From Ramlibacter sp. (GTDB taxonomy: Bacteria > Pseudomonadota > Gammaproteobacteria > Burkholderiales > Burkholderiaceae_C), in NCBI GenBank assembly GCA_041905405.1, contig JAYRLC010000023.1, positions 15 through 64,014 on the forward strand: a stretch of DNA of 64,000 nt. The letters are read 5' to 3'. The translations under genes and the position numbers were made by a program. Shown piece after piece: positions 5,822-52,765 of the stretch (position 1 is its first letter; every line of letters begins with the position of its first letter). Below the pieces are notes generated by a model. The model searched no databases. It was not told the origin of the DNA and saw only the letters and a list, made by a program, of their open reading frames with translations.

Positions 5822-6783
5822 CGATGAACCGACGCCACTTCACCTTTGCCGCAGCGGCCGCAGCCGCAAGCCTGGCCGCGCCCGCGTTCGCGCAGGACCG
5901 CACGCTGAAGATTCTGGTGGGGTTCCCGCCGGGCGGCTCCGTGGACGTCATCGCGCGCCTGCTGGCCGACAAGCTGCGCGTGTCGCTCGCGCAGAACGTC
6001 ATCGTGGACAACAAGCCGGGCGCGGGCGGCCGCGTGGCGCTGAACGAACTCAAGCGCGCCGCGCCAGATGGCCAGACGCTGGCGCTTACGCCCAGCGGGG
6101 CGCTGGTGATCCAGCCCTGGCTGTACAGCAACCTCGGCTACGACCCGGTCAAGGACTTCACGCCCATCTCGCGCGTGACCACGTTCGACTTCGCCGTGAC
6201 CGCGGGGCCCGGCGCCCCCGCGGGCGACCTGAAGGCCGTGCTGGCGTGGATGAAGGCCAACCCGGCCAAGGCCAACTACGCCACGTCCGGGGCGGGCACG
6301 GTGCCGCATTTCGCGGGCCAGATGCTGGCGCAGGCCTCGGGCGTGCCGTTGACCCACGTGGCCTACCGCGGTGGCGCGCCGGCCGCGCAGGACCTGATCG
6401 GCGGCCAGGTGCCGCTGATGGTGGACACGGCCAGCGAAACACTGGAACACCACAAGGCCGGCAAGGCGCGCATCCTGGCCGTTACGGGCGAGTCACGTTC
6501 GCGCGCGCTGCCCGACGTGCCGACGCTCAAAGAGGTGGGCATCAACGTCGCGGCCGATGCGTTCTTTGGCCTGTACGGGCCGGCCGGGCTGCCGGCCGAC
6601 GTTGCGGCGCGTATCGACCGCGCCGTGGCCGATGCGCTGAAGGCCCCTGACGTGCAGGACAAGATCTACGGCTTTGGCCTCGTGCCCAGCCACGCGCCGT
6701 CGGCCGACCTGGTGGCCACGCAGGCCGCCCACCTGAAGAAATGGGAGGCGCCGATCAAGGCGTCGGGCTTCAAGGCCGAATAG
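5818..6783 (+). CDS. Bug-family (TctC-like) tripartite tricarboxylate transporter substrate-binding protein
   Basis: Tat/Sec-like leader followed by LKILVGFPPGGSVDVIARLLADKL. ATGA overlap with the hisC stop. Confidence 0.85.
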   Translation: MTMNRRHFTFAAAAAAASLAAPAFAQDRTLKILVGFPPGGSVDVIARLLADKLRVSLAQNVIVDNKPGAGGRVALNELKRAAPDGQTLALTPSGALVIQPWLYSNLGYDPVKDFTPISRVTTFDFAVTAGPGAPAGDLKAVLAWMKANPAKANYATSGAGTVPHFAGQMLAQASGVPLTHVAYRGGAPAAQDLIGGQVPLMVDTASETLEHHKAGKARILAVTGESRSRALPDVPTLKEVGINVAADAFFGLYGPAGLPADVAARIDRAVADALKAPDVQDKIYGFGLVPSHAPSADLVATQAAHLKKWEAPIKASGFKAE

Positions 6784-29126: not shown

Positions 29127-29345
29127 TCACAGGCGGTCCTCATCACGGGCGATGGCGGTGTCGGGTGTCAGGCCCGGCCGCTTCAGAAAGCCGCGCATGG
29201 ACTTCATGCTGCGCGAAGGAATGATTTCGACGCGGTCGCCATACCCGATGACGTGCATGCGGTCGCCCGGCGACAGCTGCAGCGCCGTGCGGATCGACTG
29301 CGGAATGACGACCTGGAACTTCGGAGAGAGTGTGACGGTTTCCAT
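29127..29345 (-). CDS. vapB: AbrB/SpoVT-fold VapB antitoxin
   Basis: METVTLSPKFQVVIPQSIRTALQLSPGDRMHVIGYGDRVEIIP. Confidence 0.85.
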   Translation of the reverse strand: METVTLSPKFQVVIPQSIRTALQLSPGDRMHVIGYGDRVEIIPSRSMKSMRGFLKRPGLTPDTAIARDEDRL

Positions 29346-33884: not shown

Positions 33885-35612
33885 ATGGTGGATACGCTGA
33901 AGACTGCACCGCTGGAATGCGACGTGCTGGTGGTGGGCGCAGGCCCCGTGGGCCTGACGCTGGCCATGGACCTGGCCGGGCGCGGCGTGAAGGTCGTAGT
34001 GGCCGAAACGCGCCGCTACGCCGAGCCGCCCAGCGTCAAGTGCAACCACGTGTCGGCCCGCACCATGGAGCAGTTTCGCCGCCTGGGCGTTGCGCACAAG
34101 CTGCGCGGTGCCGGGCTGCCGGCCGACCACCCGAACGACGTGGTGTTCCGCACCAGCGTGACGGGCCAGGAGCTCACGCGCATTCCCATCCCCTGCCAGC
34201 GCGACCGCTACACCGAGACCGAAGGCCCGGACGCCTGGTGGCCCACGCCCGAGCCGCCGCACCGCATCAACCAGATCTACCTGGAACCCATCCTGCTGGA
34301 ACACACGGCGGCGCTGCCCGGCGTGACGCTGCTCAACCGCACGCAGGTGACAGGCTTCACCCAGGACGGCGGCGGTGTGCAGGCGCAGACACTGGACCTG
34401 GATACCAACGGCGAGCGCACGATCCGCGCCCGCTACCTCGTCGGCTGCGATGGCGGCTCGTCGGGCGTGCGCAAGCAGATCGGTGCGAAGCTGGAGGGCA
34501 CGGCCGTGATCCAGCGCGTGCAGTCCACCTTCATCCGCGCGCCGGGTCTGCGCGCGCTGATCCCGGGCAAGCCCGCGTGGTCGTACTACGCGGTCAACCC
34601 GCGCCGCTGCGGAACGGTGTTTGCCATCGACGGGCACGAGACCTGGCTCGTGCACAACCACCTGAACCCCCACGAGCCCGAGTTCGATTCGGTGGACCGC
34701 GACTGGGCGATCCGGCAGATCCTGGGCGTGGGCGAGGACTTCCGGTATGAGGTGATCAGTAAAGAAGACTGGGTGGGGCGCCGCCTGGTGGCCGACCGCT
34801 TCCGCGACCGCAACGTGTTCATCGCGGGCGATGCGGCGCACCTGTGGGTGCCCTACGCAGGCTACGGCATGAACGCGGGCATTGCCGATGCGATCAACTT
34901 GTCCTGGTTGCTGGCCGCGCGCATCCAGGGCTGGGCCGGCGAGGCGATCCTGGACGCCTACGAGGCCGAGCGCCAGCCCATCACCGAGCAGGTGTCGCAT
35001 TTCGCGATGGACCATGCGCAGAAGATGATCCGCGCGCGCAGCGCCGTGCCGCCCAACCTGGAGGCGCCCGACGCCGCGGGTGCGACCGAACGCGAACGCA
35101 TCGGGCGCGAATCGTATGACCTGAACGTGCAGCAGTTCTGCTGCGCGGGGCTGAACTTCGGTTACTACTACAGCGGCTCGCCCATCATGGCGGGCGACGG
35201 CGAACCGCCACCGGCCTACACCATGGGCGGCTTCACGCCGTCGACCGTGCCGGGTTGCCGTGCGCCGCACATCTGGCTGCCGGACGGCCGCTCGCTGTAT
35301 GACGCTTTCGGGCCGGGCTACACGCTGCTGCGACTGGACGCGCGGGCCGACACGGCGCCGCTGGTGGCCGCGGCGCAGGCGCGCCGCATGCCGCTGCAGG
35401 TGCTGGACCTGCAGGCCGTGCAGGACATGCCCGAGGCCTACCGGCACCGGCTGGTGCTGTGCCGGGCGGACCAGCACGTGGTGTGGCGCGGCGACGCGCT
35501 GCCGGCCGACGCGCACGCACTGGTCGGCCTGCTGTGCGGCGTCAGCGCTGCAGCAGGTTCTTCATCACCGCCCGCAGCTTTGCAGGCGGCACCGGTTTGT
35601 ACAGCAGCATGA
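33885..35612 (+). CDS. FAD-dependent aromatic-ring monooxygenase (PheA/TfdB-like)
   Basis: CDVLVVGAGPVGLTLAMDLAGRG dinucleotide fold and FIAGDAAHLWVPYAGYGMNAGIADA. The 3-prime end overlaps the convergent kinase gene by 71 nt. Confidence 0.85.
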   Translation: MVDTLKTAPLECDVLVVGAGPVGLTLAMDLAGRGVKVVVAETRRYAEPPSVKCNHVSARTMEQFRRLGVAHKLRGAGLPADHPNDVVFRTSVTGQELTRIPIPCQRDRYTETEGPDAWWPTPEPPHRINQIYLEPILLEHTAALPGVTLLNRTQVTGFTQDGGGVQAQTLDLDTNGERTIRARYLVGCDGGSSGVRKQIGAKLEGTAVIQRVQSTFIRAPGLRALIPGKPAWSYYAVNPRRCGTVFAIDGHETWLVHNHLNPHEPEFDSVDRDWAIRQILGVGEDFRYEVISKEDWVGRRLVADRFRDRNVFIAGDAAHLWVPYAGYGMNAGIADAINLSWLLAARIQGWAGEAILDAYEAERQPITEQVSHFAMDHAQKMIRARSAVPPNLEAPDAAGATERERIGRESYDLNVQQFCCAGLNFGYYYSGSPIMAGDGEPPPAYTMGGFTPSTVPGCRAPHIWLPDGRSLYDAFGPGYTLLRLDARADTAPLVAAAQARRMPLQVLDLQAVQDMPEAYRHRLVLCRADQHVVWRGDALPADAHALVGLLCGVSAAAGSSSPPAALQAAPVCTAA

Positions 35613-37836
35613 GGCCGCTGCGGCGCACGTCGCGCGCGGTTTGCAGCGACGTGTCGCCCGTGAGCAACAGCGCCGGCAGGTTGGGGCGCAGCCGCGCGCG
35701 CAGCCGGCGCACGACCTCGGTGCCCAGCTCGCCGTGGTCCAGCCGCAGGTCGGAGATGATGATGTCCGGCGCCGCGCTCTCGCGCGCGAGCAGCGCCTCG
35801 GCCTGCGGCCCGGAGCCGGCCATGATCACCTCGCAGCCCCAGCGTTGCAGCAGGATGGCCGTGCGTTCCAGGATCAGCGCGTCGTCGTCCACCAGCACCA
35901 CGCGCACCCCGGCGAAGGTGTCGGGGCTCGCGTCGTCCTCGGCCAGCAGGTCTGGCTCGGCCTGCGCGGTGGGGGACAGCTGGCCCAGCGGCACCTGAAG
36001 CGCAAAGCGCGACCCGCGGCCCAGCACCGAGTCGAGCTGGACGGTGTAGCCCAACAACTGCGTGCAACTTTGCACGATGGCCAGTCCCAGGCCAAGGCCG
36101 CCACGGTTGTCGCCATCGCGCTCGACGCGGAAGAACTCGCGGAAGATCGCCTCCTTGTGCTCGGGCGCAATGCCCAGGCCCGTGTCCCAGACCTCGATCT
36201 GCAGCGCCTGCCCGCGCTTGCGGCAGCCCAGCACGACGCCGCCGCTGTCGGTGTAGCGCAGCGCGTTGGACACCAGGTTGGCCACGATGCGCTCCAGCAG
36301 CGCCGGGTCGCTGAACACCACGGCGTCGCAGCGCACCACGCGCAGGTGCAGGTTCTTCTTTTGCGCCACAGCCGAGAACGCGCGGCGCACCCGCTCCAGC
36401 ACCGGCTGCAGCGGGAACGCCATGAGGTTGGGTGCGATCAGCCCGCTTTCCAGCCGCGAGATGACAAGGATCGCGTCCAGCAGCGACTGCGTGGAATGCA
36501 GGGCCGATTCCATGTGTTCCAGCAGGGGCGCGACCTGCGGCGGCAGCGCTGCAATGCTCTTGAGGTCGTCCAGGAACAGGCCCAGCGCATGCATGGGTTG
36601 GCGCAGGTCATGGCTCACGGCGGCCATGAACCGCGACTTGGCCGCGCTCGCGCGTTCAGCCTCGCTTTTCTGCGCGGACAGCGTGGCCAGCTGCTGCAGG
36701 CGCTCCTCGCGCTGCCTGAACTCGGTCAGGTCGGTGACGATCGCCAGCGTACCGGCGTGCGCGCCATCCTTGCCGTACACGGGGTAGCGGGTCTGCATGG
36801 TCAGCACGGCACTGCCGTTCTTGCGGCGCAGCGTCACGGCGGCGCCGTCGTCCTGCGCCCCGTTGCCGTCCTCGGGCTGCAGCGGCGTGTCATGGACCAG
36901 GCTGGACAGCAACTGGCCGGTGAGCTCGGCTTCCGGGTAGCCCAGCATGGCGGCCACGCGCCGGTTGGCGAAGGTGATGCGTCCTTCGGCATCGGTCATC
37001 AGGATGCCGTCGCGGCCGCTGTCCATGATGCGGCGAAATCGCTCCTCGCTGCCGCGCAGCGCCGCCGCGGCGCGTTCGCGTGTGCTCACGTCCTTGCCCA
37101 GCCCCCGGTAGACCAGCCGCTCGCCGTCCGATGCCACGGGCACGCCGCTGATGCTGATGTGCAGCGACTCGGCGCCGTCGGTCGGGTAGCGGATCACGAA
37201 GTCGTGATACGGCTTGCCCGCTGCCTGGGCCTCCCGCAGCACGGCCCAGTCCGCCTCGGCGCCGGCGCGGGCCAGGTCCTCCCAGGTGCGGCCCAGCAGG
37301 GCGGCCGGATCGATGCCGCATTTTTCCGCGAAACCCTCGGACAGGTAGGACAGACGCCCCTGCAGGTCCTGTTCCCAGTACCAGTCCGATGACAGGTCGG
37401 CCAGGCTGCGAAAGCGCGCCTCGCTGATGCGCAGCGACGCCTCGATCGCCTTGCGCTCCTGCGCATACTTCATGGTCTTGACCAGCAGCCGGCCGGACAG
37501 ATCGTTCTTGACCATGTAGTCCTGCGCGCCGGCTTTCACGGCCGACAGCGCGAGCTGCTGGTCCTCGTTGCCCGTCAGCACGATGACGGGCAGCGCCGGC
37601 GCCCGGCTTTGCAGCTTGTACAGCGTCTCAAGCCCGAAACTGTCCGGCAGCGACAGGTCCAGGAACACCACATCCGGCAGGCCTGACTCCAGCGTGGCCA
37701 GCGCGTCTTCCAGCGATTCGGCGATCTGCATGCTGAAGGCGGCGCGGCCGATCTCGTCCACCAGCAGTTCGCGGATCAGCCGCGCGTCGCCGGGGTTGTC
37801 CTCGACCAGCAGGATCTCCTGAACGCCGTCCTTCAT
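35542..37836 (-). CDS. hybrid sensor histidine kinase (REC-PAS-PAS-HisKA-HATPase-REC)
   Basis: ILLVEDNPGD...FLDLSLPD receiver, two PAS units, H-box FMAAVSHDLRQPMHAL, N/G boxes, and a C-terminal receiver ...IISDLRLD.... Confidence 0.9.
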   Translation of the reverse strand: MKDGVQEILLVEDNPGDARLIRELLVDEIGRAAFSMQIAESLEDALATLESGLPDVVFLDLSLPDSFGLETLYKLQSRAPALPVIVLTGNEDQQLALSAVKAGAQDYMVKNDLSGRLLVKTMKYAQERKAIEASLRISEARFRSLADLSSDWYWEQDLQGRLSYLSEGFAEKCGIDPAALLGRTWEDLARAGAEADWAVLREAQAAGKPYHDFVIRYPTDGAESLHISISGVPVASDGERLVYRGLGKDVSTRERAAAALRGSEERFRRIMDSGRDGILMTDAEGRITFANRRVAAMLGYPEAELTGQLLSSLVHDTPLQPEDGNGAQDDGAAVTLRRKNGSAVLTMQTRYPVYGKDGAHAGTLAIVTDLTEFRQREERLQQLATLSAQKSEAERASAAKSRFMAAVSHDLRQPMHALGLFLDDLKSIAALPPQVAPLLEHMESALHSTQSLLDAILVISRLESGLIAPNLMAFPLQPVLERVRRAFSAVAQKKNLHLRVVRCDAVVFSDPALLERIVANLVSNALRYTDSGGVVLGCRKRGQALQIEVWDTGLGIAPEHKEAIFREFFRVERDGDNRGGLGLGLAIVQSCTQLLGYTVQLDSVLGRGSRFALQVPLGQLSPTAQAEPDLLAEDDASPDTFAGVRVVLVDDDALILERTAILLQRWGCEVIMAGSGPQAEALLARESAAPDIIISDLRLDHGELGTEVVRRLRARLRPNLPALLLTGDTSLQTARDVRRSGLMLLYKPVPPAKLRAVMKNLLQR

Positions 37837-37847
37837 GGGCGGGCTCC

Positions 37848-38306
37848 TCAGTCATCCGCCTTGGGTGGCAAAGTGACCAGGGCCAGCCAGAAGCGGTCGA
37901 TCGACCGGATCACTTCGATGAAATTGTCGAAGTCCACAGGCGACTTGGTGACGTAGCAGTTGGCGTACAGGTCGTAGCTGCGCAGGATGTCTTCCTCGGC
38001 CTTGGACGTGGTGAGGATCACGACGGGAATGCGCCGCAGCTGCGGCTGCGTCTTGATGTGCTGCAGCACCTCACGGCCGTCCATGCGCGGCAGGTTAAGG
38101 TCCAGCAGGATCAGGTCGGGCCGCACCGCGTCGCCGTGCTTGCCGCGCCGGTGCAGGAAGTCCAGCGCTTCCACGCCGTCCTCCACCCAGTGCAGCTTGC
38201 ACAGCACCTTGCCCTCGCGCAGGGCTTCCACTGTCAGACGCATGTCGCCGGGGTTGTCTTCCACCAGCAGGATGTCCAGGGGCTTGGGCGCTACGTCAAT
38301 GTTCAT
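37848..38306 (-). CDS. single-domain CheY-like response regulator (Rcp1-type)
   Basis: ILLVEDNPGDMRL...LILLDLNLPRMDG...VVILTTS...YVTKP. ATGA overlap with the giant kinase stop. Confidence 0.9.
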   Translation of the reverse strand: MNIDVAPKPLDILLVEDNPGDMRLTVEALREGKVLCKLHWVEDGVEALDFLHRRGKHGDAVRPDLILLDLNLPRMDGREVLQHIKTQPQLRRIPVVILTTSKAEEDILRSYDLYANCYVTKSPVDFDNFIEVIRSIDRFWLALVTLPPKADD

Positions 38307-41300
38307 GGTGTCTCGCTTTCGGTGAGGGATTTGGACAGCGTGAAACTGAAGGTGGTGCCCTGGCCGGGCCCGGATGCCACGGTGAACTGTCCGCCGTGGC
38401 GCTCCACGATTTTCTTGCAGATGGACAAGCCGATACCTGTACCTTCGTATTTGGTGCGCGAATGCAGGCGCTGGAAGATGATGAAGATGCGCTGGAAATA
38501 TTCCGGCGCGATGCCGATGCCGTTGTCGGCCACCGAGATGGTCCAGAACTGCGCGTCTTCCACCGCGGTGATGCGCACCACGGGTGGCGCCTCGCCACGG
38601 AATTTGATGGCGTTGCCCACGAGGTTCTGGAACACCTGGGTGAGGCCGGCCTTCTCGCACACGAGCTCGGGCATGGGGCCGCGCTCGATGACGGCGCCGT
38701 TGCGCTCAATGGCGTTGGCCAGATTGGCCAGCGCGTCGTCCAGCGCGCGGTCCAGCCGGATCTGGCGCATCGGGACCTTGGAGCGGCCCGCGCGCGAATA
38801 CATGAGCAGGTCGTCGATCAACTGCTTCATGCGCTGCGCGCCGTCCACCGCGTACTTGATGAATTCGCGCCCGTCGTCGTCGAATTTGTCTGCATAGCGC
38901 CTGGACAGCAGCTGCGTGTAGCTGGCCACCATGCGCAGCGGCTCGGACAGGTCGTGCGACGTCACGTAGGCGAACTGCTCCAGCTCCTGGTTGGAACGGG
39001 TGAGCTCGGCCACGCGCTGGCGGATTTCCTCCTCGGCGCGACGGGCCTCGGTGATGTCGCGCATCAGCGTGACGATCACCCATCGGCCATCCACGTTGAC
39101 GGCGCGCCGCGAAAATTCAATCACTGTGTCGCGTCCGCCCAGGCCCAGCGGATTGACGGTGCGTACGTCTACGATGGCTTCGGGTGCCCGCGAGATGACA
39201 TATTGATAGCCCTTTCGCATCCTGTCCGGATTGAAGGGCTCGTTCGCCGTGGAGTAGTAGCTGGATTCCACCCCCCCCGCCAGCAGCGTTTCGCGTGGCA
39301 CGCCCAGCATCTGCACCGCTGCCTGGTTCACGTCGTAGTACTCGAGTGTTTCCGGGTCGGCGATCATGATGACGTCCACCGCGGCGTCGTAGGCCTGGCG
39401 CAGCAGCTCGAGCTCGGCGACGCGCCGGCGGATTTCGGCTTCGGCACGCTTGCGTTCGGTGATGTCGCGCACGGTGGCCAGGATCAGCCAGCGTCCGTCG
39501 GACTGGATCGCCAGGCGATGTGTCTCGGCCTGGAAGACCGAGCCGTCGCAGCGTACCGCATCGTGCTCCATGTAGTGGATTTCAGGCGAGCGGGCGATCG
39601 TCTCGTCGTACAGCGCTTCCAGATCCGCGGTGCTCATGCCTGGCCGGTTGGCGTTGGGGCGCAAGGCCAGCAGGTCTTCGCGGGTATAGCCATACATGCG
39701 GCAGGCGGCTTCATTCACGTCAATGGTGCGAAGCGTCTCGCGGTCCACCACGAACACGCCGTCGGCGCTGAGGTTGACCACCGCGGCGAAGCGTTCCATG
39801 CGCAGTTGGGCGGCCTTGCGCTCGGTGATATCGCGCACCGTCGCGACAACGAGCCAGCCGTCCTCGGACCGGATGGCCTGGCGATGCACTTCCGCCGGAA
39901 AGCTGCTGCCGTCTGCGCGCATGGCCGTGATCTCGGTCCGTATGACGGCCGGCGAGGCGTGGATGGCGTCGTCGAACTGGCGCTCAAGGTCCTCCTGGGT
40001 CGCTCCGGTGCGGCCCCTGTGCGGGGGCAGTGCCAGGAAGGTGTCGCGCGTATGGCCGTACATACGGCAGGCGGTTTCATTGACGTCGATGATCGACATG
40101 CGGGTGCGGTCAAAAACGAGCACCGCGTCCGCGCTGAGGTTCACGATGGCGGCGAAACGTTCGATGCGGTCCTGCGCTGCCTTTCGCTCCGTGATGTCCC
40201 GCACGACGATGAGGATCAGCCAGCGCCCATCCACCTGCACAGCCTGGCGCAGCGTCTCGGTCACGATGTCGGGCCGTCCCGGCAGGCGAACGCGGCGCTC
40301 CGACGTATGAACTTGTGGATAGTTCTGGATCAGCCAGTTGTGACGCTCCCGGACGCCGTCCAGGGTGAAATTCGCATCATGGTTGTTCAGCCAGCGCATG
40401 AAGCCCGTCATGCCCATGCCCAGAACTTCCTCCCGCGACAGCCCATACAGCCGGCCTGCTGCGTGGTTCAGGTCGATGTACTCGCCGCTGTCGGCGTCCA
40501 CGATGTACATGCCGTCGGGCGCCACATCCACGACGGCCTTCAGCTGCCGCAGTCCGGCCTCGGCGGCCTTGCGCTGCGTGACGTCGCGGGCCGTGATGGC
40601 GATGATCCAGCCGCCGCCGGGCCCGGATTGCAGCGCCTGGCGCTGCACCTCGGCGACGAAGTGGCTGCCGTCGGCGCGCTGGGCGACAAGCTCGGCGTGA
40701 ATGACCTCCGGCGAGCGCCGGATGGCCTCGTCGTAGTCCGCTTCCAGCTGCTGCAGTGTCGTGCTGCCCCGGCTCAGGTGCGGCGGCAGGGCCAGCAGTT
40801 CCTCGCGGGTGTATCCGTGCAGGCGGCAGGCGGCCTCATTCACATCGATGATGCGCATGCTGGCGCGGTCCACCAGCAGCACTGCGTCGGCGCTGAGGTT
40901 CAGCACTGCGGCAAAACGCCCGATGCGCTCCTGCGCAAGCTTGCGCTCGGTGATATCGCGCACGGTCGTCACCACCAGCCAGCGACCCTCGGACCGGATG
41001 GCCATGCGCTGGACCTCGGCATGGAAGCTCCTGCCGTCCGCGCGTCGCGGCTCGACCTCGGTGACGGTCACGCGTGGCGACTGGGCGATCACCTCGTCGT
41101 ATTCGCGCGCCATCCTGGCGGCGGCTTCCTGGTAGGTCCGGGTCAAGCGGTGCACCGGATGGCCGATGAGCTGCTCCCGCGAATAGTCGTACATCCGGCA
41201 GGCGCTGTCGTTGACGTCCACGACGTTCATGGACTCCCGGTCGATCACGAACAGCGCGTCCGCGCTGAGGTTCACGATGGCTGCGAAACGCTCGATGCGG

Positions 41301-44300
41301 GCCAGCGCGGCCTTGCGCTCGCTCAGGTCGCGCACGGTCACCACCATGACCCAGGCCCCGTCGGACAGCAGTGCCTGGCGCCGGACCTCGGCCGCGAACG
41401 TGCTGCCGTCGGGCCGCCGCTCGACCACTTCCTCGTGCACGACGGCCGGGGACTGCCGGATGACGGCGTCGTACCTGGCCGCCAGCTCGTCGCGCGTGGT
41501 GTCCTGCAGGGTCAGGTGCACTGGCAGGGCCATCATCTCGTCGCGCGTGCAGCCGTGCATGGCGCAGGTGGCTTCATTCACGTCAATGACCTGCATGGTC
41601 GACCGGTCGATCAGCATCACGGCGTCGGGGCTCATGTTCACCACCGCCGCGAAGCGTTCAATGCGAGCCTGCGCGGCCTTGCGCTCGGTCAGGTCGCGCA
41701 CGGTGATGACGATCACCCATTCGCCATCGGCCCGCACCGCCTGGCGCTGCGCCTCGGCGGGGAAGCGGCTGCCGTCGGCGCGGATGGCCTGGATTTCGGC
41801 GCGGCTGGTCGCGGGCGACGTGCGGATCATCTCGTCGTACAGCTTTTCCAGTTCTTCGAGCGAGCCGCCGTCCTTGTGCAGATGCGGTGGCATGGTGGTC
41901 AACTGCTCGCGGGTGTAGCCGTACATGCGGCAGGCGGCGTCGTTGACATCCACGATGCGCATGCCGTCACGCTGCACGACGAACACGGCGTCGGCGCTCA
42001 GACTGACAATCGCCGCGAACCGTTCCATGCGGGCCTGTGCGGCCTTGCGTTCGGTAATGTCGCGGGTGACGTTGACGACGAGCCACCGGCCATCCACCTG
42101 GACGGCCTGGCGGACGGTCTCGGTGTGCACGCGGCGGCCGTCGGGCGTGCGCTGGGTACGTTCCTGGGTCTGGGCCTGGGGATGGTTGGCGATCAGCTCC
42201 GCGTAGCTTTCGCGCAGCCTCTCAGGCGTCATGCCTTCGTTGAAGGAGCCCAGCCATTTCAGCAGGCCGGTCATGCCCATGTCCAGCACCTGCTCGCGCG
42301 TGAGGCCGTACAGCGAGCCCGCCGCGCGGTTGACTTCGACGTATTCGAGTTTTTCGGGATCGATGAGGTAGAAGCTGTCGGGCGCCAGGTCGATCGCGGC
42401 CTTGAGCATGTTCAGCCGGGTCTGCTCGGCCTTGCGCTGGGTGATGTCCCGCGCCACGCTGATGACGAGCCAACGGTCGCCCACGCGCGCGGCCCGTCGT
42501 ACCGCTTCGGTAAGGATCGTGCTGCCGTCGGGGCGGCGCACGACGCGCTCCTCGGACACGGCCTGGGGCGCCATGGCGATCAGGTCGTCATAGCGCTGAC
42601 GCAGCAACTGCGGCGTGAACTGCGGGAACATGCCGAGCATGCCGCGTTTCATTACCTCCTGCAGCGGCAGGCCGTGCAGGCGGCAGACGGCGTCGTTCAC
42701 GTGCACATACTGGAAGGTGTCGGGGTCCACGACGGCGATGGCGTCGGGTGCGGCGTCGACGGCGGCCAGCAGCAACTCGAGCTGGGCCTGGGCTGCCAGC
42801 CGCTGCGTGATGTCGCGGTTGACGCTGACGATGATCCAGCGGTCGTCGACGCGGACGGCGCGGCGCGTGGCCTCGACCATGCGTTCGGAGCCGTCCGGCC
42901 GCCGCAGAGGCCGCGTCTCGATGTCGGGCTGGGGGCTTTGCGCAATGACCTTGGCGTACACCTCGCGCAGATGCCGGCGTGCTTCCTCGTCCTGGAACAC
43001 CCCCGTGATGCCGCTGGCCAGCATCCGGGCACGCGGCAGCGCCGTGAGCTGGGCCGCAGCCTCGTTCACGTCGATGTAGTCGAGCGTGGCCGGATCAATG
43101 ACCAGGATCGCATCGGGAGCGGCGTCGATGGCCGCCTTCAGCAGTTCCAGGCGAGCCTGGGCCGCCCGGCGTTCGGTGATGTCACGCATCACGCTGATCA
43201 CAAGCCATTCGCCATCGACGCGGATGGCGCGGCGGATCGATTCGGCCCACACCACGCGTCCGTCGCTGCGCGGAATCTGCCGTTCTTCGGTCAGTGAGTC
43301 GGGGAACCGGCTGATCAGCTCGTCGTAGCGTGCGCGCAGGCCAGCCTCGTCGAACCTGTTGCCGAACGCCCCCCGGACCCCCAGGGCCCGCAGTTCGTCG
43401 CGGGATACGCCGTGCATCCGCGCGGCCGCCTCGTTGACATCGACATAGGCGAAGGTTCGGGGGTCGATGATGTAGATGCCGTCGCCCGACGCGTCGAAGG
43501 CAGCCGTGATGCGCTCCAGATGCCGTTGCTGGCGCTTGCGCGCGGTGATGTCGATGCGGGTGCTCAGGATCAGCCAGCGGCCACCCGAGTGCATGGCGCG
43601 GTGGCGGATCTCCAGCTGCACGGCCGTGCCGTCGGGGCGTGTGGCGCCCTCCTCGCGGACGATGGTTTCGGGGTGCCGCGCCACCACGTCGGCATAAAAC
43701 GGCCGGATGTCTCCTATGTTTCCGAACCGGCGCGCCAGCCCGGCCGGGCCAAGCGCGGCGATGTCCTGCGCGGGAGTGCCCGTAAGCTTCTGGAATGCGT
43801 CGTTGAAGTACAGATAGGACAAAGCCTGCACGTCCACGATGCAGATGGCGTCCGTGGCCTGCTCGAAGGCGGCCTGGAACAGTTCGCGCTGCGCCTGGGT
43901 GGCCACATTTGCCGAGATGTCCCGCCAGGTGATGAAGATCAGCCACCGGCCGTCCACGTTCAGGGCCTGGCGGGTGGCGGCGACCGGAACGGTCCGTCCG
44001 TCGTCGCGGAGAAAGTCGTACTCATGCGTCAGCGCCTGGGGCGAGCGCTTGATGAGTTCCGCATACAGGGCGTGGAAATCCTCATTGCCACTGCCGTCGC
44101 GCCGGCGCAGGGTCGTGGGACCGCGTCGGCGCATCTCCTCCAGGGTCATGCCCATCAACGCGCAGGCGGCTGGATTGGCGTCCAGGAAGACCAGCGTCCG
44201 CGCGTCCACCACCATCGCGGCGTCGGGGCTGAGGAATAGCGCGGAGTTCACACGCGATGCCAGCCCGTCCGCCGCTGTCGTGGCGTGCCGAATCCGGACA

Positions 44301-44614
44301 CAGAAGGCTTGCCTGCCGCCCGTCGTGGAGCGCGTTGCCGCAAGCTCCAGAGGCAGTGCGGTTGCCCCCAGCAGCTTCACGGGTGTGGGAGGGAGCTGGT
44401 CGGTACCTTTCCAGCCTGCGGCATCGGCCAACGGCTCAGGCTGCCAGACCGACGCCGCGGCCATGCCCTGCAGGCCGCCCATGGCGGCCTGCGCCGCCGG
44501 CGCAAGCAGGTCCTGTGCGGCAGGATTGGCATAGACGATGAGGCCGTCCATGACCAGCACGAGCGCGTCGGAAGAGAGTTCGGCAAGGTTCCGGAAATCC
44601 GTGGCGTCGTGCAT
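38303..44614 (-). CDS. 2103-aa cytoplasmic sensor histidine kinase with 15 tandem PAS domains
   Basis: 15 PAS-like units of 122-129 aa, each closed by W(L/V)(V/I)..RD(I/L)T.RK. The C-terminal H-box is FAYVTSHDLSEPLRMV, followed by HATPase N/G boxes. No TM segment was seen. Confidence 0.9.
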   Translation of the reverse strand: MHDATDFRNLAELSSDALVLVMDGLIVYANPAAQDLLAPAAQAAMGGLQGMAAASVWQPEPLADAAGWKGTDQLPPTPVKLLGATALPLELAATRSTTGGRQAFCVRIRHATTAADGLASRVNSALFLSPDAAMVVDARTLVFLDANPAACALMGMTLEEMRRRGPTTLRRRDGSGNEDFHALYAELIKRSPQALTHEYDFLRDDGRTVPVAATRQALNVDGRWLIFITWRDISANVATQAQRELFQAAFEQATDAICIVDVQALSYLYFNDAFQKLTGTPAQDIAALGPAGLARRFGNIGDIRPFYADVVARHPETIVREEGATRPDGTAVQLEIRHRAMHSGGRWLILSTRIDITARKRQQRHLERITAAFDASGDGIYIIDPRTFAYVDVNEAAARMHGVSRDELRALGVRGAFGNRFDEAGLRARYDELISRFPDSLTEERQIPRSDGRVVWAESIRRAIRVDGEWLVISVMRDITERRAAQARLELLKAAIDAAPDAILVIDPATLDYIDVNEAAAQLTALPRARMLASGITGVFQDEEARRHLREVYAKVIAQSPQPDIETRPLRRPDGSERMVEATRRAVRVDDRWIIVSVNRDITQRLAAQAQLELLLAAVDAAPDAIAVVDPDTFQYVHVNDAVCRLHGLPLQEVMKRGMLGMFPQFTPQLLRQRYDDLIAMAPQAVSEERVVRRPDGSTILTEAVRRAARVGDRWLVISVARDITQRKAEQTRLNMLKAAIDLAPDSFYLIDPEKLEYVEVNRAAGSLYGLTREQVLDMGMTGLLKWLGSFNEGMTPERLRESYAELIANHPQAQTQERTQRTPDGRRVHTETVRQAVQVDGRWLVVNVTRDITERKAAQARMERFAAIVSLSADAVFVVQRDGMRIVDVNDAACRMYGYTREQLTTMPPHLHKDGGSLEELEKLYDEMIRTSPATSRAEIQAIRADGSRFPAEAQRQAVRADGEWVIVITVRDLTERKAAQARIERFAAVVNMSPDAVMLIDRSTMQVIDVNEATCAMHGCTRDEMMALPVHLTLQDTTRDELAARYDAVIRQSPAVVHEEVVERRPDGSTFAAEVRRQALLSDGAWVMVVTVRDLSERKAALARIERFAAIVNLSADALFVIDRESMNVVDVNDSACRMYDYSREQLIGHPVHRLTRTYQEAAARMAREYDEVIAQSPRVTVTEVEPRRADGRSFHAEVQRMAIRSEGRWLVVTTVRDITERKLAQERIGRFAAVLNLSADAVLLVDRASMRIIDVNEAACRLHGYTREELLALPPHLSRGSTTLQQLEADYDEAIRRSPEVIHAELVAQRADGSHFVAEVQRQALQSGPGGGWIIAITARDVTQRKAAEAGLRQLKAVVDVAPDGMYIVDADSGEYIDLNHAAGRLYGLSREEVLGMGMTGFMRWLNNHDANFTLDGVRERHNWLIQNYPQVHTSERRVRLPGRPDIVTETLRQAVQVDGRWLILIVVRDITERKAAQDRIERFAAIVNLSADAVLVFDRTRMSIIDVNETACRMYGHTRDTFLALPPHRGRTGATQEDLERQFDDAIHASPAVIRTEITAMRADGSSFPAEVHRQAIRSEDGWLVVATVRDITERKAAQLRMERFAAVVNLSADGVFVVDRETLRTIDVNEAACRMYGYTREDLLALRPNANRPGMSTADLEALYDETIARSPEIHYMEHDAVRCDGSVFQAETHRLAIQSDGRWLILATVRDITERKRAEAEIRRRVAELELLRQAYDAAVDVIMIADPETLEYYDVNQAAVQMLGVPRETLLAGGVESSYYSTANEPFNPDRMRKGYQYVISRAPEAIVDVRTVNPLGLGGRDTVIEFSRRAVNVDGRWVIVTLMRDITEARRAEEEIRQRVAELTRSNQELEQFAYVTSHDLSEPLRMVASYTQLLSRRYADKFDDDGREFIKYAVDGAQRMKQLIDDLLMYSRAGRSKVPMRQIRLDRALDDALANLANAIERNGAVIERGPMPELVCEKAGLTQVFQNLVGNAIKFRGEAPPVVRITAVEDAQFWTISVADNGIGIAPEYFQRIFIIFQRLHSRTKYEGTGIGLSICKKIVERHGGQFTVASGPGQGTTFSFTLSKSLTESETP
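39044..44593 (-). repeat. coding tandem array of 15 diverged PAS modules (period about 366-387 nt)
   Basis: Unit boundaries were counted on the translated protein (aa 8-1857). There are two main unit classes. Confidence 0.8.
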
Positions 44615-44699: not shown

Positions 44700-45245
44700 A
44701 TGTCCGCAACAGGTTCCGGTCAGGCTCAGCGCCTGAAAGTCCTCGTGGTCGATGACCACCATCTCGTGCGCGAGGGGCTCAAACTTGCCCTGCGCCAGAT
44801 TCAGGACGACGTGGAGGTGCTGGAGGCGGACACGTTGGGCAAGGCCATCGAGACCTATCGCGCTCATTCCGATTTCGATCTGGTCCTGCTGGACCTGTCC
44901 ATGCCCGGCACGACAGGCGCGGCGTCCGCGCTGGACGGTTTCGAGCAGAGCTGCCCCGACGCCCGCATCGTGGTGGTGTCGGCTTCCTACGACATGCAGA
45001 CCGTGCAGGGGGCTCTGCGCAAGGGCGCTTTGGGCTTCATCCCCAAGCTTGCCGGCAAGGACGCCCTGCTCAGCGCCCTGCGGTTCGTTCTGGACGGAGG
45101 CATCTATGTCCCACCCGAGGCCGTCGTAGGGGGGCCGCAGGACGCCCCGCCGCGATTCGGCATGGGTGGCGGCAGTCCCTCATCGCCCATGCCGGCGCTG
45201 TCCCGCCAGATCTGGCTGGACGATCCGGCCAGCAAGCACAAATAA
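44700..45245 (+). CDS. NarL/FixJ-type receiver domain protein lacking the LuxR HTH output
   Basis: VLVVDDHHLVREGL...LLDLSMPG...VVVSAS...GFIPK receiver. The C-terminus ends ...ALSRQIWLDDPASKHK, and there is no room for an HTH before thiL. Confidence 0.75.
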   Translation: MSATGSGQAQRLKVLVVDDHHLVREGLKLALRQIQDDVEVLEADTLGKAIETYRAHSDFDLVLLDLSMPGTTGAASALDGFEQSCPDARIVVVSASYDMQTVQGALRKGALGFIPKLAGKDALLSALRFVLDGGIYVPPEAVVGGPQDAPPRFGMGGGSPSSPMPALSRQIWLDDPASKHK

Positions 45246-50767: not shown

Positions 50768-52765
50768 TCAGGCCTGTCGGGACGGCACAAAGAAGCTGCC
50801 CGGCCGGCGGCGCAGCCTGGCGCGGATGGCGCTGTAGATGCGCCTGCGGTCCACGCCGCTGACGTTGTGGGCGCGCAGCGCGAGCTGGAACGCGAAGTAA
50901 AAGCTCACGGTGAGATTGAGCACGCCGATCAGCGGAATGGCGGCCACGCACCACCAGAACTGCGGCAGATGCAGCACGTCCAGCCCGTAGCTGGCCGCGG
51001 CCGCCGCGAGCTGGCCGGTGGACAGGGTGACGTGGCGCGCCTGCAGCCCGATACCGATGAAGGCCAGCACGGGCGGCACCAGGCCCAGCATGAAGCCCAG
51101 CGAAATATTGGAGGCAAAGCCGGAAATGTGCTCGCGCATGAAGCGGGCCCAGCGGTCGGCCCGCTGCACGCCCAGGAACCGCGTGATGCGCGGGTTGTAG
51201 CGCATGGCCGAATCGAGCCGGTGCAGCACGAACCAGTTCTCCACCCAGCCCGCGATCAGGCTGGACGCGAACAGCAGCACGCCCGTGAACGCGGCGAACA
51301 GCAGGGTGCTGGGCGAAAGCAGACTCAGCGAATGGAACACATAGTCGGCCTCGGCGCGGCCGATCATGGGGTGGCCGCTCGCCAGGTAGATGGCGTAGCT
51401 GATCAGCAGCACGCAGGGCGTGACCATGCCAACGTTCCCCGCCACGGCCGCGACCTGCGAACGCACCAGGTGCGTGACCTCGTCCACGAACTCCTCCACG
51501 GCGTCGCGCCGGCCCAGGTCCTTGAGCTTGGCCGCCATGGCCGGCGCCGTCATGGCGGGCTGCTTGGTGGCCAGCGTCCAGTGCGCCAGCTGGATCAGCA
51601 CGAAGCTGGCCGCGTACATGGCGCCCGCCCAGAAGCCGCCCCAGAACGCGGCCAGCCCCAGTGCCCCCAATGCGAACTTGGCGGACACCGTCAGCGACGT
51701 CACCGCGCCGCCGCCGGCAGCCTTGCCCAGCATGCTGCGGTACTCGGCGCGCGTGCGAGTGATGTAGTGCTCGCCGGTCTCCGCGCTGCGCTCGGCCAGC
51801 TTGGCCGCCAGCAGCGACGAATTGGACGCCAGCAACGCGCGCAGGCTGCGCCGCTCCTGGCTTGCCGCGGCCAGGTGCGACAGCAGCCGCGCCGTGGCGG
51901 TCAGCGGCGTGCCCGACAGCAGACAGTCCATGAGTTCACGCACGCGCAGCACGCGCGCGCGCAACTGGCGCAGCATGAACACCAGGCCCACCGAAATGCC
52001 GTGTTCTTCCAGGTGCGCATAGACGCTGTTGGCCGCCTGGCGGCAGGCGTCCAGGCGTTCGCGCAGGCGGTTGGCGGCCGCTTCCACGTCCTGCGGCTCG
52101 CGCGGCGTGGCGACGAACGCCGCATGCAGGGCCTGCACGTCGGCGGCCAGTTCATGGAACGGCTGGGTCTGGCGCGCGGGCGTGCCCATGCGCTGGCGCA
52201 GCTCGGCGGCGAAGCCCGTGGAGCGGATCTGGCTTGCGCAGTAGTTGATGGCTTCCAGCAGCTCGCGCTGCCACAGCGTCAGGCCCGCCACGCTGCTGGG
52301 CGCGCGCAGCAGCGCGCCCAGACGGCGCAGCGTCACGTCGTCCAGTGCCGCCAGCCACTGGGCGTCAAAGCTGTCGCCCAGCGCCAGGCTGAAGAGTTCG
52401 GACGCGTCGCTGGTTTCCGGCGTGGCGGGCAGCAGCTTGTGGCGCAGCCGCGCGGCCATCTCGCTCATGAACGCCGTGCGCGGCGCGAAACCGAAGTCCG
52501 CCAGCAACGTGGATGGGTCCACGGTGCCGGTCAGCGCCAGCCACCATTGCTGCAGCCGTTCCTGCGCATCGGGCTGCGCCTGCAGGGCGTCCAGAAACAG
52601 CGTGACGCGGCTGGCTGCGGCCTGGGGCGATACCCGGTCGCCCCGCACCCAGTCCAGCAGGGCGATCAGCCACAGATGACGCTGCGCGAGCGGTGCCTGC
52701 GGGTCCAGCGTGTCCAGCAGGTGCCTGAGCGCGCTGGCCGCGCCGGCGGTGCGGGCGCCGCTCAA
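50768..52765 (-). CDS. membrane protein of the so-called site-specific recombinase (Gcr-like, PF10136-type) family
   Basis: N-terminal ...LAQRHLWLIALLDWVRG... block as I remember it for this family. Several C-terminal TM helices. TTG start overlapping the apaG stop. Confidence 0.6.
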   Translation of the reverse strand: MSGARTAGAASALRHLLDTLDPQAPLAQRHLWLIALLDWVRGDRVSPQAAASRVTLFLDALQAQPDAQERLQQWWLALTGTVDPSTLLADFGFAPRTAFMSEMAARLRHKLLPATPETSDASELFSLALGDSFDAQWLAALDDVTLRRLGALLRAPSSVAGLTLWQRELLEAINYCASQIRSTGFAAELRQRMGTPARQTQPFHELAADVQALHAAFVATPREPQDVEAAANRLRERLDACRQAANSVYAHLEEHGISVGLVFMLRQLRARVLRVRELMDCLLSGTPLTATARLLSHLAAASQERRSLRALLASNSSLLAAKLAERSAETGEHYITRTRAEYRSMLGKAAGGGAVTSLTVSAKFALGALGLAAFWGGFWAGAMYAASFVLIQLAHWTLATKQPAMTAPAMAAKLKDLGRRDAVEEFVDEVTHLVRSQVAAVAGNVGMVTPCVLLISYAIYLASGHPMIGRAEADYVFHSLSLLSPSTLLFAAFTGVLLFASSLIAGWVENWFVLHRLDSAMRYNPRITRFLGVQRADRWARFMREHISGFASNISLGFMLGLVPPVLAFIGIGLQARHVTLSTGQLAAAAASYGLDVLHLPQFWWCVAAIPLIGVLNLTVSFYFAFQLALRAHNVSGVDRRRIYSAIRARLRRRPGSFFVPSRQA

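Follow-up and report, generated by a model that had tools for sequence, protein, structure and literature searches.

The window analysed here, 64,000 nucleotides of Ramlibacter sp. (contig JAYRLC010000023.1 of assembly GCA_041905405.1), carries the gene of a 2103-aa histidine kinase with 15 consecutive PAS domains in front of its catalytic core. Our best reading, to which we assign a probability of roughly 60%, is that of a modular multi-input cytoplasmic kinase in which the PAS cassettes act as separate inputs. Separate inputs are favored because the cassettes shared with orthologues are under selection and because the region on the side of the ligand pocket is specific for the cassette type. 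A length-defined ruler, on the other hand, is disfavored because the length of the array varies 2.5-fold at one locus. The preliminary description of this DNA had raised the question of whether the chain integrates many signals or acts as a rod; variable length together with purifying selection on shared cassettes favors input modules over a rod of defined length. What deserves the attention of specialists is that orthologues in synteny form a series of colinear cassettes.

The minus-strand open reading frame (ORF) at 38303..44614 begins with ATG and was found as described before. A library scan of its product (Pfam, NCBIfam) returned PAS-clan families, HisKA and HATPase_c and nothing else. 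The motif W..x..[RI]D[ILV][TS] occurs 14 times with regular spacing, and unit boundaries were set by cutting six residues past each copy. Units 2–15 close with W..RD(I/L/V)(T/S), here called the DIT motif, which is missing from unit 1; the earlier statement that every unit ends in this way therefore applies to 14 units only. Likewise, the unit length of 122–129 aa given before is correct for units 2–14, but unit 15 comprises 136 aa, with an N-terminal linker longer by 7 aa, and unit 1 comprises 112 aa.

38303..44614, minus strand: coding sequence of the multi-PAS histidine kinase (15 PAS, HisKA and HATPase_c), from the ORF, Pfam/NCBIfam and our own profile
44279..44614, minus strand: PAS unit 1 (aa 1–112), minimal, without DIT motif, from PAS_8, AlphaFold2 and Foldseek
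43895..44278, minus strand: PAS unit 2 (aa 113–240), in 14/14 proteins of the series with 65–80% identity
43526..43894, minus strand: PAS unit 3 (aa 241–363), alone in its cluster at ≥65% identity
43157..43525, minus strand: PAS unit 4 (aa 364–486), class B
42788..43156, minus strand: PAS unit 5 (aa 487–609), class B, no orthologue at ≥65% elsewhere
42422..42787, minus strand: PAS unit 6 (aa 610–731), class B
42035..42421, minus strand: PAS unit 7 (aa 732–860), class B with insert, in the window protein only
41669..42034, minus strand: PAS unit 8 (aa 861–982), class A, in the window protein only
41303..41668, minus strand: PAS unit 9 (aa 983–1104), class A
40931..41302, minus strand: PAS unit 10 (aa 1105–1228), class A
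40559..40930, minus strand: PAS unit 11 (aa 1229–1352), class A
40172..40558, minus strand: PAS unit 12 (aa 1353–1481), class B with insert, F-alpha His in place of Tyr in 7/7 copies
39806..40171, minus strand: PAS unit 13 (aa 1482–1603), class A
39440..39805, minus strand: PAS unit 14 (aa 1604–1725), class A
39032..39439, minus strand: PAS unit 15 (aa 1726–1861), kinase-proximal, linker one heptad longer, in 13/14 proteins of the series

A hidden Markov model (HMM) built on units 2–15 recognized 14 domains with 137–167 bits each and, in addition, a weak N-terminal match. At the thresholds used, the generic libraries gave 12 stretches for PAS_9 (456 bits), 13 for PAS_8 and 13 for TIGR00229 (693 bits). 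A much smaller number of PAS domains in such scans had been named beforehand as a result that would speak against the count; it did not appear, with 12–13 stretches from generic profiles and 14 plus unit 1 from specific ones. Profile matches to the PAS fold (Pfam clan CL0183) above the curated threshold were obtained for the units claimed. Unit 1 shows merely 12–25% identity to the other units. PAS_8 nevertheless gives it 23.4 bits, above the cut-off of 21.8, and matches it in all nine sequences scanned, i.e. that of the window and eight orthologues. Its AlphaFold2 model (9-sequence alignment) has a predicted local distance difference test score (pLDDT) of 80.5, a predicted template modeling score (pTM) of 0.71 and the element order H-EE-HHH-EEE. 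The PDB matches listed by Foldseek for this model are PAS domains (EcDOS, PpsR, FixL, LOV) with a probability of 1.0 and template modeling (TM) scores of 0.5–0.7. Since PAS_8, the AlphaFold2 model and Foldseek all assign the PAS fold to unit 1, we keep the count of 15; this unit is a PAS fold of minimal form, and 14 of the 15 folds carry the closing motif. The order of the PAS sheet (strands A, B, G, H and I with the intervening helices C–F) was seen in the AlphaFold2 models of unit 1 and of units 8–9.

The division of the units into two main classes is borne out by mutual identities of 47–58% within class A (ERFAA type; units 8, 9, 10, 11, 13 and 14) and of 35–53% within class B (LLKAA type; units 4, 5, 6, 7, 12 and 15). 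Units 7 and 12 have an insert of 6–7 aa in common. When the units were split into thirds in a search for chimeric cassettes, the N- and C-terminal thirds were found to be conserved across all class A units.

A comparison of copy numbers among orthologues had been recommended, and it provides the central observation. In a collection of 5.8 billion proteins, the closest relatives comprise 1745, 1726, 1604, 1600, 1601, 1484, 1359 and 1225 aa, with length steps of about 122 aa, and the unit HMM finds 12, 12, 11, 11, 11, 10, 9 and 8 units in them in the same order. Six loci from Ramlibacter/Caenimonas metagenome-assembled genomes (L003–L008) contain 11, 7, 6, 7, 11 and 10 units. The protein of L003 is identical with P0004 of the database set, and the series thus consists of 14 distinct proteins including that of the window, whose 15 units form the largest array (range 6–15; the 13 orthologues have 6–12). 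The eight database proteins were placed in the series by sequence alone, the locus context being known only for P0004. Two relatives, P0010 (Caenimonas aquaedulcis, 8 PAS) and P0011, were excluded from the series; P0010 resides at another locus and was treated as a paralogue. A relative with 8 PAS domains, 38% identity and the same kinase core lies at 6001–9831 of L026 (Caenimonas aquaedulcis, JADWYS010000001.1) as an orphan beside trehalose-metabolism genes, without an adjacent regulator. Hence, the kinase family also has dispersed paralogues.

In the six loci gene content and gene order around the kinase are kept. Identities to the window amount to 93–95% for GCS2, 80–83% for the AIR-synthase-like protein, 70–77% for a divergent protein with a receiver (REC) domain, 93–96% for a 152-aa response regulator, 82–84% for a hybrid kinase and 86–88% for an FAD monooxygenase. 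Since these flanks are conserved while the number of units shifts, it is the sensor array that varies at a locus whose remainder is stable.

Clustering of all units except unit 1 at ≥65% identity yielded 28 cassette types. The minimal N-terminal PAS domain heads every protein of the series, unit 2 occurs in 14/14 and unit 15 in 13/14, and the middle is a mosaic. For units 3, 5, 7 and 8 of the window no orthologue was found at ≥65%; unit 3 reaches at most 40–53% identity to any unit of the eight orthologues compared. One linear order of cassettes fits all 14 proteins, and shuffling the middle cassettes 1000 times never produced a colinear order. Such a pattern is consistent with whole units having been gained or lost but not rearranged. 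Either differential loss from a longer ancestor or ordered insertion could have produced it.

Two junctions show where units are removed. In P0006, which lacks unit 15, DITQRKRAEDEIRARMAEL is joined directly to TRSNQELEQF, and the break lies inside the linker motif RAExEIRxRxAEL that is present on either side of unit 15; the DNA encoding this motif is repeat family D9 in a repeat search of the gene. In P0008, which lacks the third unit, WLIFITW, the I-beta strand of the second unit, is continued by LDITARKQEQRRLERITAAF, with which the following unit ends. Because both deletion junctions are located there, the conserved DNA encoding the DIT motif and linker is the likely recombination site.

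Selection on the cassettes was assessed by the ratio of nonsynonymous to synonymous substitution rates (dN/dS; Nei-Gojobori) for every window unit whose orthologue had DNA. Compared with the orthologues of L003–L008, the units have values of 0.11–0.36 and the kinase core 0.09–0.12, at a dS of 0.4–1.15. Shared cassettes are under purifying selection, and this includes the region of helix E-alpha and the E-F loop. This region, which is part of the PAS domain and forms one side of the ligand pocket, also shows the largest columnwise contrast, with an identity of 0.65–0.94 between orthologous versus 0.10–0.13 between paralogous cassettes. Judged from these alignments, a conserved signature that is specific for the type would suit cassette-specific binding better than interchangeable spacers.

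These data have to be weighed against a structural rod or scaffold. According to this explanation most units bind nothing and serve dimerization or spacing in a stiff filament, and sensing is confined to the ends (units 1–2 and/or 15), or the chain is an oligomerizing hub. Such a role would agree with the lack of a cofactor motif in any unit, with helical linkers that are identical at the standard junctions, and with a retention pattern in which unit 2, unit 15 and the minimal N-terminal PAS domain are kept as described while the middle cassettes are individually dispensable. However, an array length that is unconserved between 6 and 15 units counts against a ruler-like role, the shared middle cassettes are under purifying selection, and conservation of the pocket-side E-alpha/E-F loop within but not between cassette types is unexpected for interchangeable spacers. 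We therefore regard the rod as rather unlikely. The ends, units 1–2 and unit 15, may still be the indispensable parts for sensing and transmission.

The geometry of the chain is regular. Counted from the T/S of the DIT motif, the following invariant Asp lies at a distance of exactly 20 residues in 12/12 junctions of units 2–14. Ahead of unit 15 this distance is 27 residues, one heptad more, and from unit 15 to His1887 the distance is 31. In the AlphaFold2 model of units 8–9 (24-sequence alignment; pLDDT 89.7, pTM 0.64) an uninterrupted helix of 19 residues (125–143) connects I-beta of the first unit with A-beta of the second. The whole di-PAS model superimposes on DosP, the FixL PAS-A/PAS-B dimer and MmoS with TM scores of 0.58–0.72, and on NifL with a TMq of 0.60. 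By analogy to these structures the kinase probably forms a parallel dimer, and its helical spine would lead into the DHp helix. Fully extended, 15 units would presumably span some tens of nanometers.

For the modular multi-input kinase we propose the following mechanism. Each cassette would serve as an input of its own, maintained separately and binding either a small ligand or a partner protein. Every cassette would bias the helical spine, which runs along the PAS domains and on into DHp, and this would set the autophosphorylation of His1887. The phosphoryl group would then be transferred to the 152-aa regulator and perhaps also to the N-terminal REC domain of the hybrid kinase. In-register recombination in the DIT/linker DNA would add or remove inputs and leave the helical register unbroken.

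Several points weigh against this interpretation. A ligand, cofactor or partner was identified for none of the units, and Pfam and a motif scan revealed no canonical cofactor motif; the nearest PAS relatives of known structure are weak, with a best E-value of 6e-8. The dS values of 0.4–1.15 are rough in a genome of 68% GC, and dN/dS excludes five units, i.e. 3, 5, 7 and 8, which have no orthologue at ≥65%, and 13, whose single orthologue came without DNA. Some copy numbers could be wrong, as the orthologues stem from short-read metagenome assemblies. Moreover, that the kinase dimerizes and that a signal propagates across 14 PAS domains is deduced from FixL, DosP and related structures, and the phosphotransfer partners are deduced from gene order only.

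A bolder version of the multi-input kinase, which we put forward only tentatively, is a plug-in sensor board with about 28 cassette types, each having its own ligand or partner and being gained or lost as a whole by in-register recombination at the DIT/linker DNA. If this holds true, closely related species would rewire the signals that reach one conserved kinase-regulator output, and the locus would be a natural experiment on the passage of signals along long PAS chains.

A repetitive region may be collapsed or expanded during assembly, which had been named as a possible refutation of the 15-unit array. The region is indeed repetitive at the protein level, and its source is probably a metagenome-assembled genome. 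However, the DNA copies of the units are mutually only 60–83% identical, and Tandem Repeats Finder detects no array in the kinase gene because the units are too diverged in DNA. The longest exact repeat within the gene has 27 nt, and each cassette type occurs at most once per array. Furthermore, GCA_041904965.1 and the Logan assembly of SRR26835171 each encode a 2103-aa protein composed of the same 15 units. In the region 28300–54600 the window differs from the former in 75 of 26,312 bases and from the Logan contig in 23 of 12,957. In the kinase gene the differences to these two contigs amount to 9 nt and 2 aa (V303I, S884G; 99.9% identity). As bases differ from both public contigs, the window either belongs to a closely related strain or was assembled separately. 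The 15-unit array is not an assembly artefact, and expansion by mis-assembly is extremely improbable.

Cassette 12 stands out by a candidate ligand residue. At a conserved position of F-alpha, Tyr is found in 12/14 units, Phe in unit 13 and His in unit 12. All seven copies of cassette 12, which is present in 7/14 proteins of the series, read RERHxWLI (His1425 plus Trp) where 12/14 units have Y-D/A-x-x-I. We take this stretch to resemble the heme-ligand motif H-D-x-x-L of FixL, and by this analogy His1425 could be a heme ligand like the proximal His of FixL. Heme or another cofactor for sensing gas or redox state might then be bound by a single unit or a small number of them, such as cassette 12 with the invariant F-alpha His, and the remaining units would relay the signal. 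The resemblance of the tandem model to the PAS-A/PAS-B pairs of FixL and DosP is in line with such a sensor. PDB searches with unit 10, unit 12 and the cassette-12 profile, however, gave weak generic PAS matches that end before F-alpha. The alignments of unit 12 to FixL stop short of this helix as well, which leaves His1425 a putative counterpart of the proximal His. With neither CXXCH nor a LOV cysteine in the kinase and with cassette 12 in only half of the proteins, we consider a gas or redox sensor improbable.

In the kinase, searches for a LOV cysteine ([GN]C[RK]F[LM]Q or NC[RK]) gave zero matches, in agreement with the preliminary description, and CXXCH does not occur. Of its 14 cysteines, seven belong to the motif N(E/D)xxC of the C-alpha helix; that of unit 10 is substituted in orthologues. 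Against solved structures the unit profile finds weak relatives, MmoS PAS-B being the best (6e-8), followed by short LOV proteins, FixL and PpsR.

The catalytic core has two domains:

38786..38983, minus strand: HisKA/DHp (aa 1878–1943), Pfam 41.6 bits
38330..38650, minus strand: HATPase_c (aa 1989–2095) with N, G1, F and G2 boxes, Pfam 99.3 bits

The phospho-acceptor His1887 (codon 38954–38956) is part of HDLSEP, and the catalytic boxes read NLVGNAIKF, DNGIGI, FIIF and GTGIGL. The core is intact and, by these motifs, that of a class I (HisKA) sensor histidine kinase; the HATPase domain reported before is confirmed. In PDB searches the unnamed histidine kinase 8f71 ranks first (E 5e-47), followed by the bacteriophytochromes 8sgk, 8avv, 9ys3 and 8uph (1e-41 to 1e-35), with HK853 reaching 3e-23 only. 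The phytochrome-style character noted for the H-box hence extends further: by sequence the whole core belongs to the bacteriophytochrome HisKA type, and an Rcp1/RcpA-type regulator is encoded just downstream. As already noted, GAF and PHY families are absent from the Pfam matches of the kinase. It is not a phytochrome and has the output module alone in common with phytochromes. The protein was correctly described as soluble: the highest 19-aa Kyte-Doolittle window across the kinase is only 1.46, and therefore no transmembrane helix is assigned.

The genes next to the kinase are the following:

37848..38306, minus strand: 152-aa single-domain response regulator, Rcp1/RcpA type, start overlapping the kinase stop by 4 bp
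35542..37836, minus strand: hybrid kinase of 764 aa (REC-PAS-HisKA-HATPase-REC), encoded next in the same orientation
44700..45245, plus strand: 181-aa REC-only protein with Pro/Gly-rich tail, divergent, with an 85-bp spacer upstream of the kinase

The 152-aa regulator was first seen in the gene calls of a near-identical public contig and then located in the window. Response_reg is its sole Pfam match, and in the PDB it matches 5te9 (3e-50), RcpA 1k68 (1e-41) and Rcp1 1i3c (4e-39). Kinase and regulator are translationally coupled. The system is a Cph1/Rcp1-like output pair in which the photosensory core is replaced by the PAS chain. The N-terminal REC domain of the hybrid kinase has 34% identity to the 152-aa regulator, and both contain the signature ILLVEDNPGD. 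The 181-aa protein starts with VLVVDDHxLVREGL, which is of the NarL/FixJ type, has no helix-turn-helix domain and ends in a Pro/Gly/Ser-rich tail of about 50 aa; its gene is syntenic in all six related loci. Judging by gene order only, it is probable that the locus is embedded in a multi-step relay.

In the wider surroundings, the genes of the hybrid kinase and the FAD monooxygenase converge and, according to gene calls, overlap at their 3' ends by about 70 bp (35542–35612). A pair of MazE-like antitoxin and PIN-domain toxin lies downstream at about 28742–29345 on the minus strand (gene calls at 25270–25873 of L001, the near-identical public contig). A 665-aa PF10136 (SpecificRecomb) protein is encoded upstream at about 50768–52765 on the minus strand (from 1850–3847 of L001), followed by a MarR regulator and two Na+/H+ exchanger genes that flank the GCS2 glutamate-cysteine ligase. 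Shadow ORFs are abundant due to the high GC content of the window (about 63–73%). A 1633-aa antisense ORF at 38396..43297 on the plus strand was rejected as a gene; it has zero Pfam matches and is a shadow ORF typical of GC-rich coding DNA. A scan for sigma-70 promoters found nothing, and terminator-like matches were not more frequent than in shuffles.

PAS proteins contain two PAS domains on average; the largest number reported from reference proteomes, 19, belongs to a kinase of the cyanobacterium Aulosira (UniProt A0A1Z4MZL8), and Phytophthora has proteins with more than 14 (Xing, Gumerov and Zhulin 2023, PMC10468136). When 1.84 billion representative proteins were searched with the unit profile, 260,872 matched, and among the best 150 of these were six with 15–17 matched stretches. 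Since counts of PAS stretches in giant proteins (NCBIfam, E 1e-20) depend on the threshold, total TIGR00229 bits were used instead, and by this measure four of the six exceed the kinase (933–1213 versus 693 bits). The chain was thus rightly placed near the extreme for bacterial kinases: 15 PAS domains are near the top but not a record, and taken as a single gene it encodes an expected kind of protein, with a length inside the range known so far.

Kinases with many PAS domains are common in annotation, but it is not understood how a signal travels across so many of these domains. The locus offers a ready-made series for this question: the core (dN/dS about 0.1), the regulator (93–96% identity) and the neighbors are constant, the helical linkers are fixed and 6–15 PAS domains vary. 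Natural variants, or cassette deletions at natural junctions, could test whether a PAS domain adds an input or only length.

Like the multi-PAS kinases of the Aulosira type, the kinase has a long unbroken PAS chain ahead of a HisKA/HATPase core, and its units are without assigned function. It differs from the Aulosira kinase in its origin (Comamonadaceae rather than cyanobacteria), in the number of units (15 versus 19) and in that a syntenic copy-number series is documented here. With Cph1/Rcp1 and the BphP pairs it has in common the HisKA subfamily (H-box FAYVxSHDLxEPLR) and the type of regulator encoded just downstream, but a 15-PAS array serves as sensor instead of the PAS-GAF-PHY photosensory core of Cph1 and BphP. 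The predicted tandem geometry of two adjacent units, with the DIT motif leading into a helical linker, resembles FixL, DosP, MmoS and NifL. In contrast to these proteins there are fifteen units rather than two, the sequence similarity is weak, and a heme His or flavin motif is undemonstrated here. A conserved kinase-proximal PAS domain combined with shuffling of the more N-terminal ones has been described among paralogues in lineage-specific expansions of histidine kinases (Alm, Huang and Arkin 2006, PMC1630713). The present series follows this pattern in that the kinase-proximal PAS domain is kept while those upstream vary; here, however, the kinases compared are syntenic orthologues, and the presence or absence of cassettes is strictly colinear.

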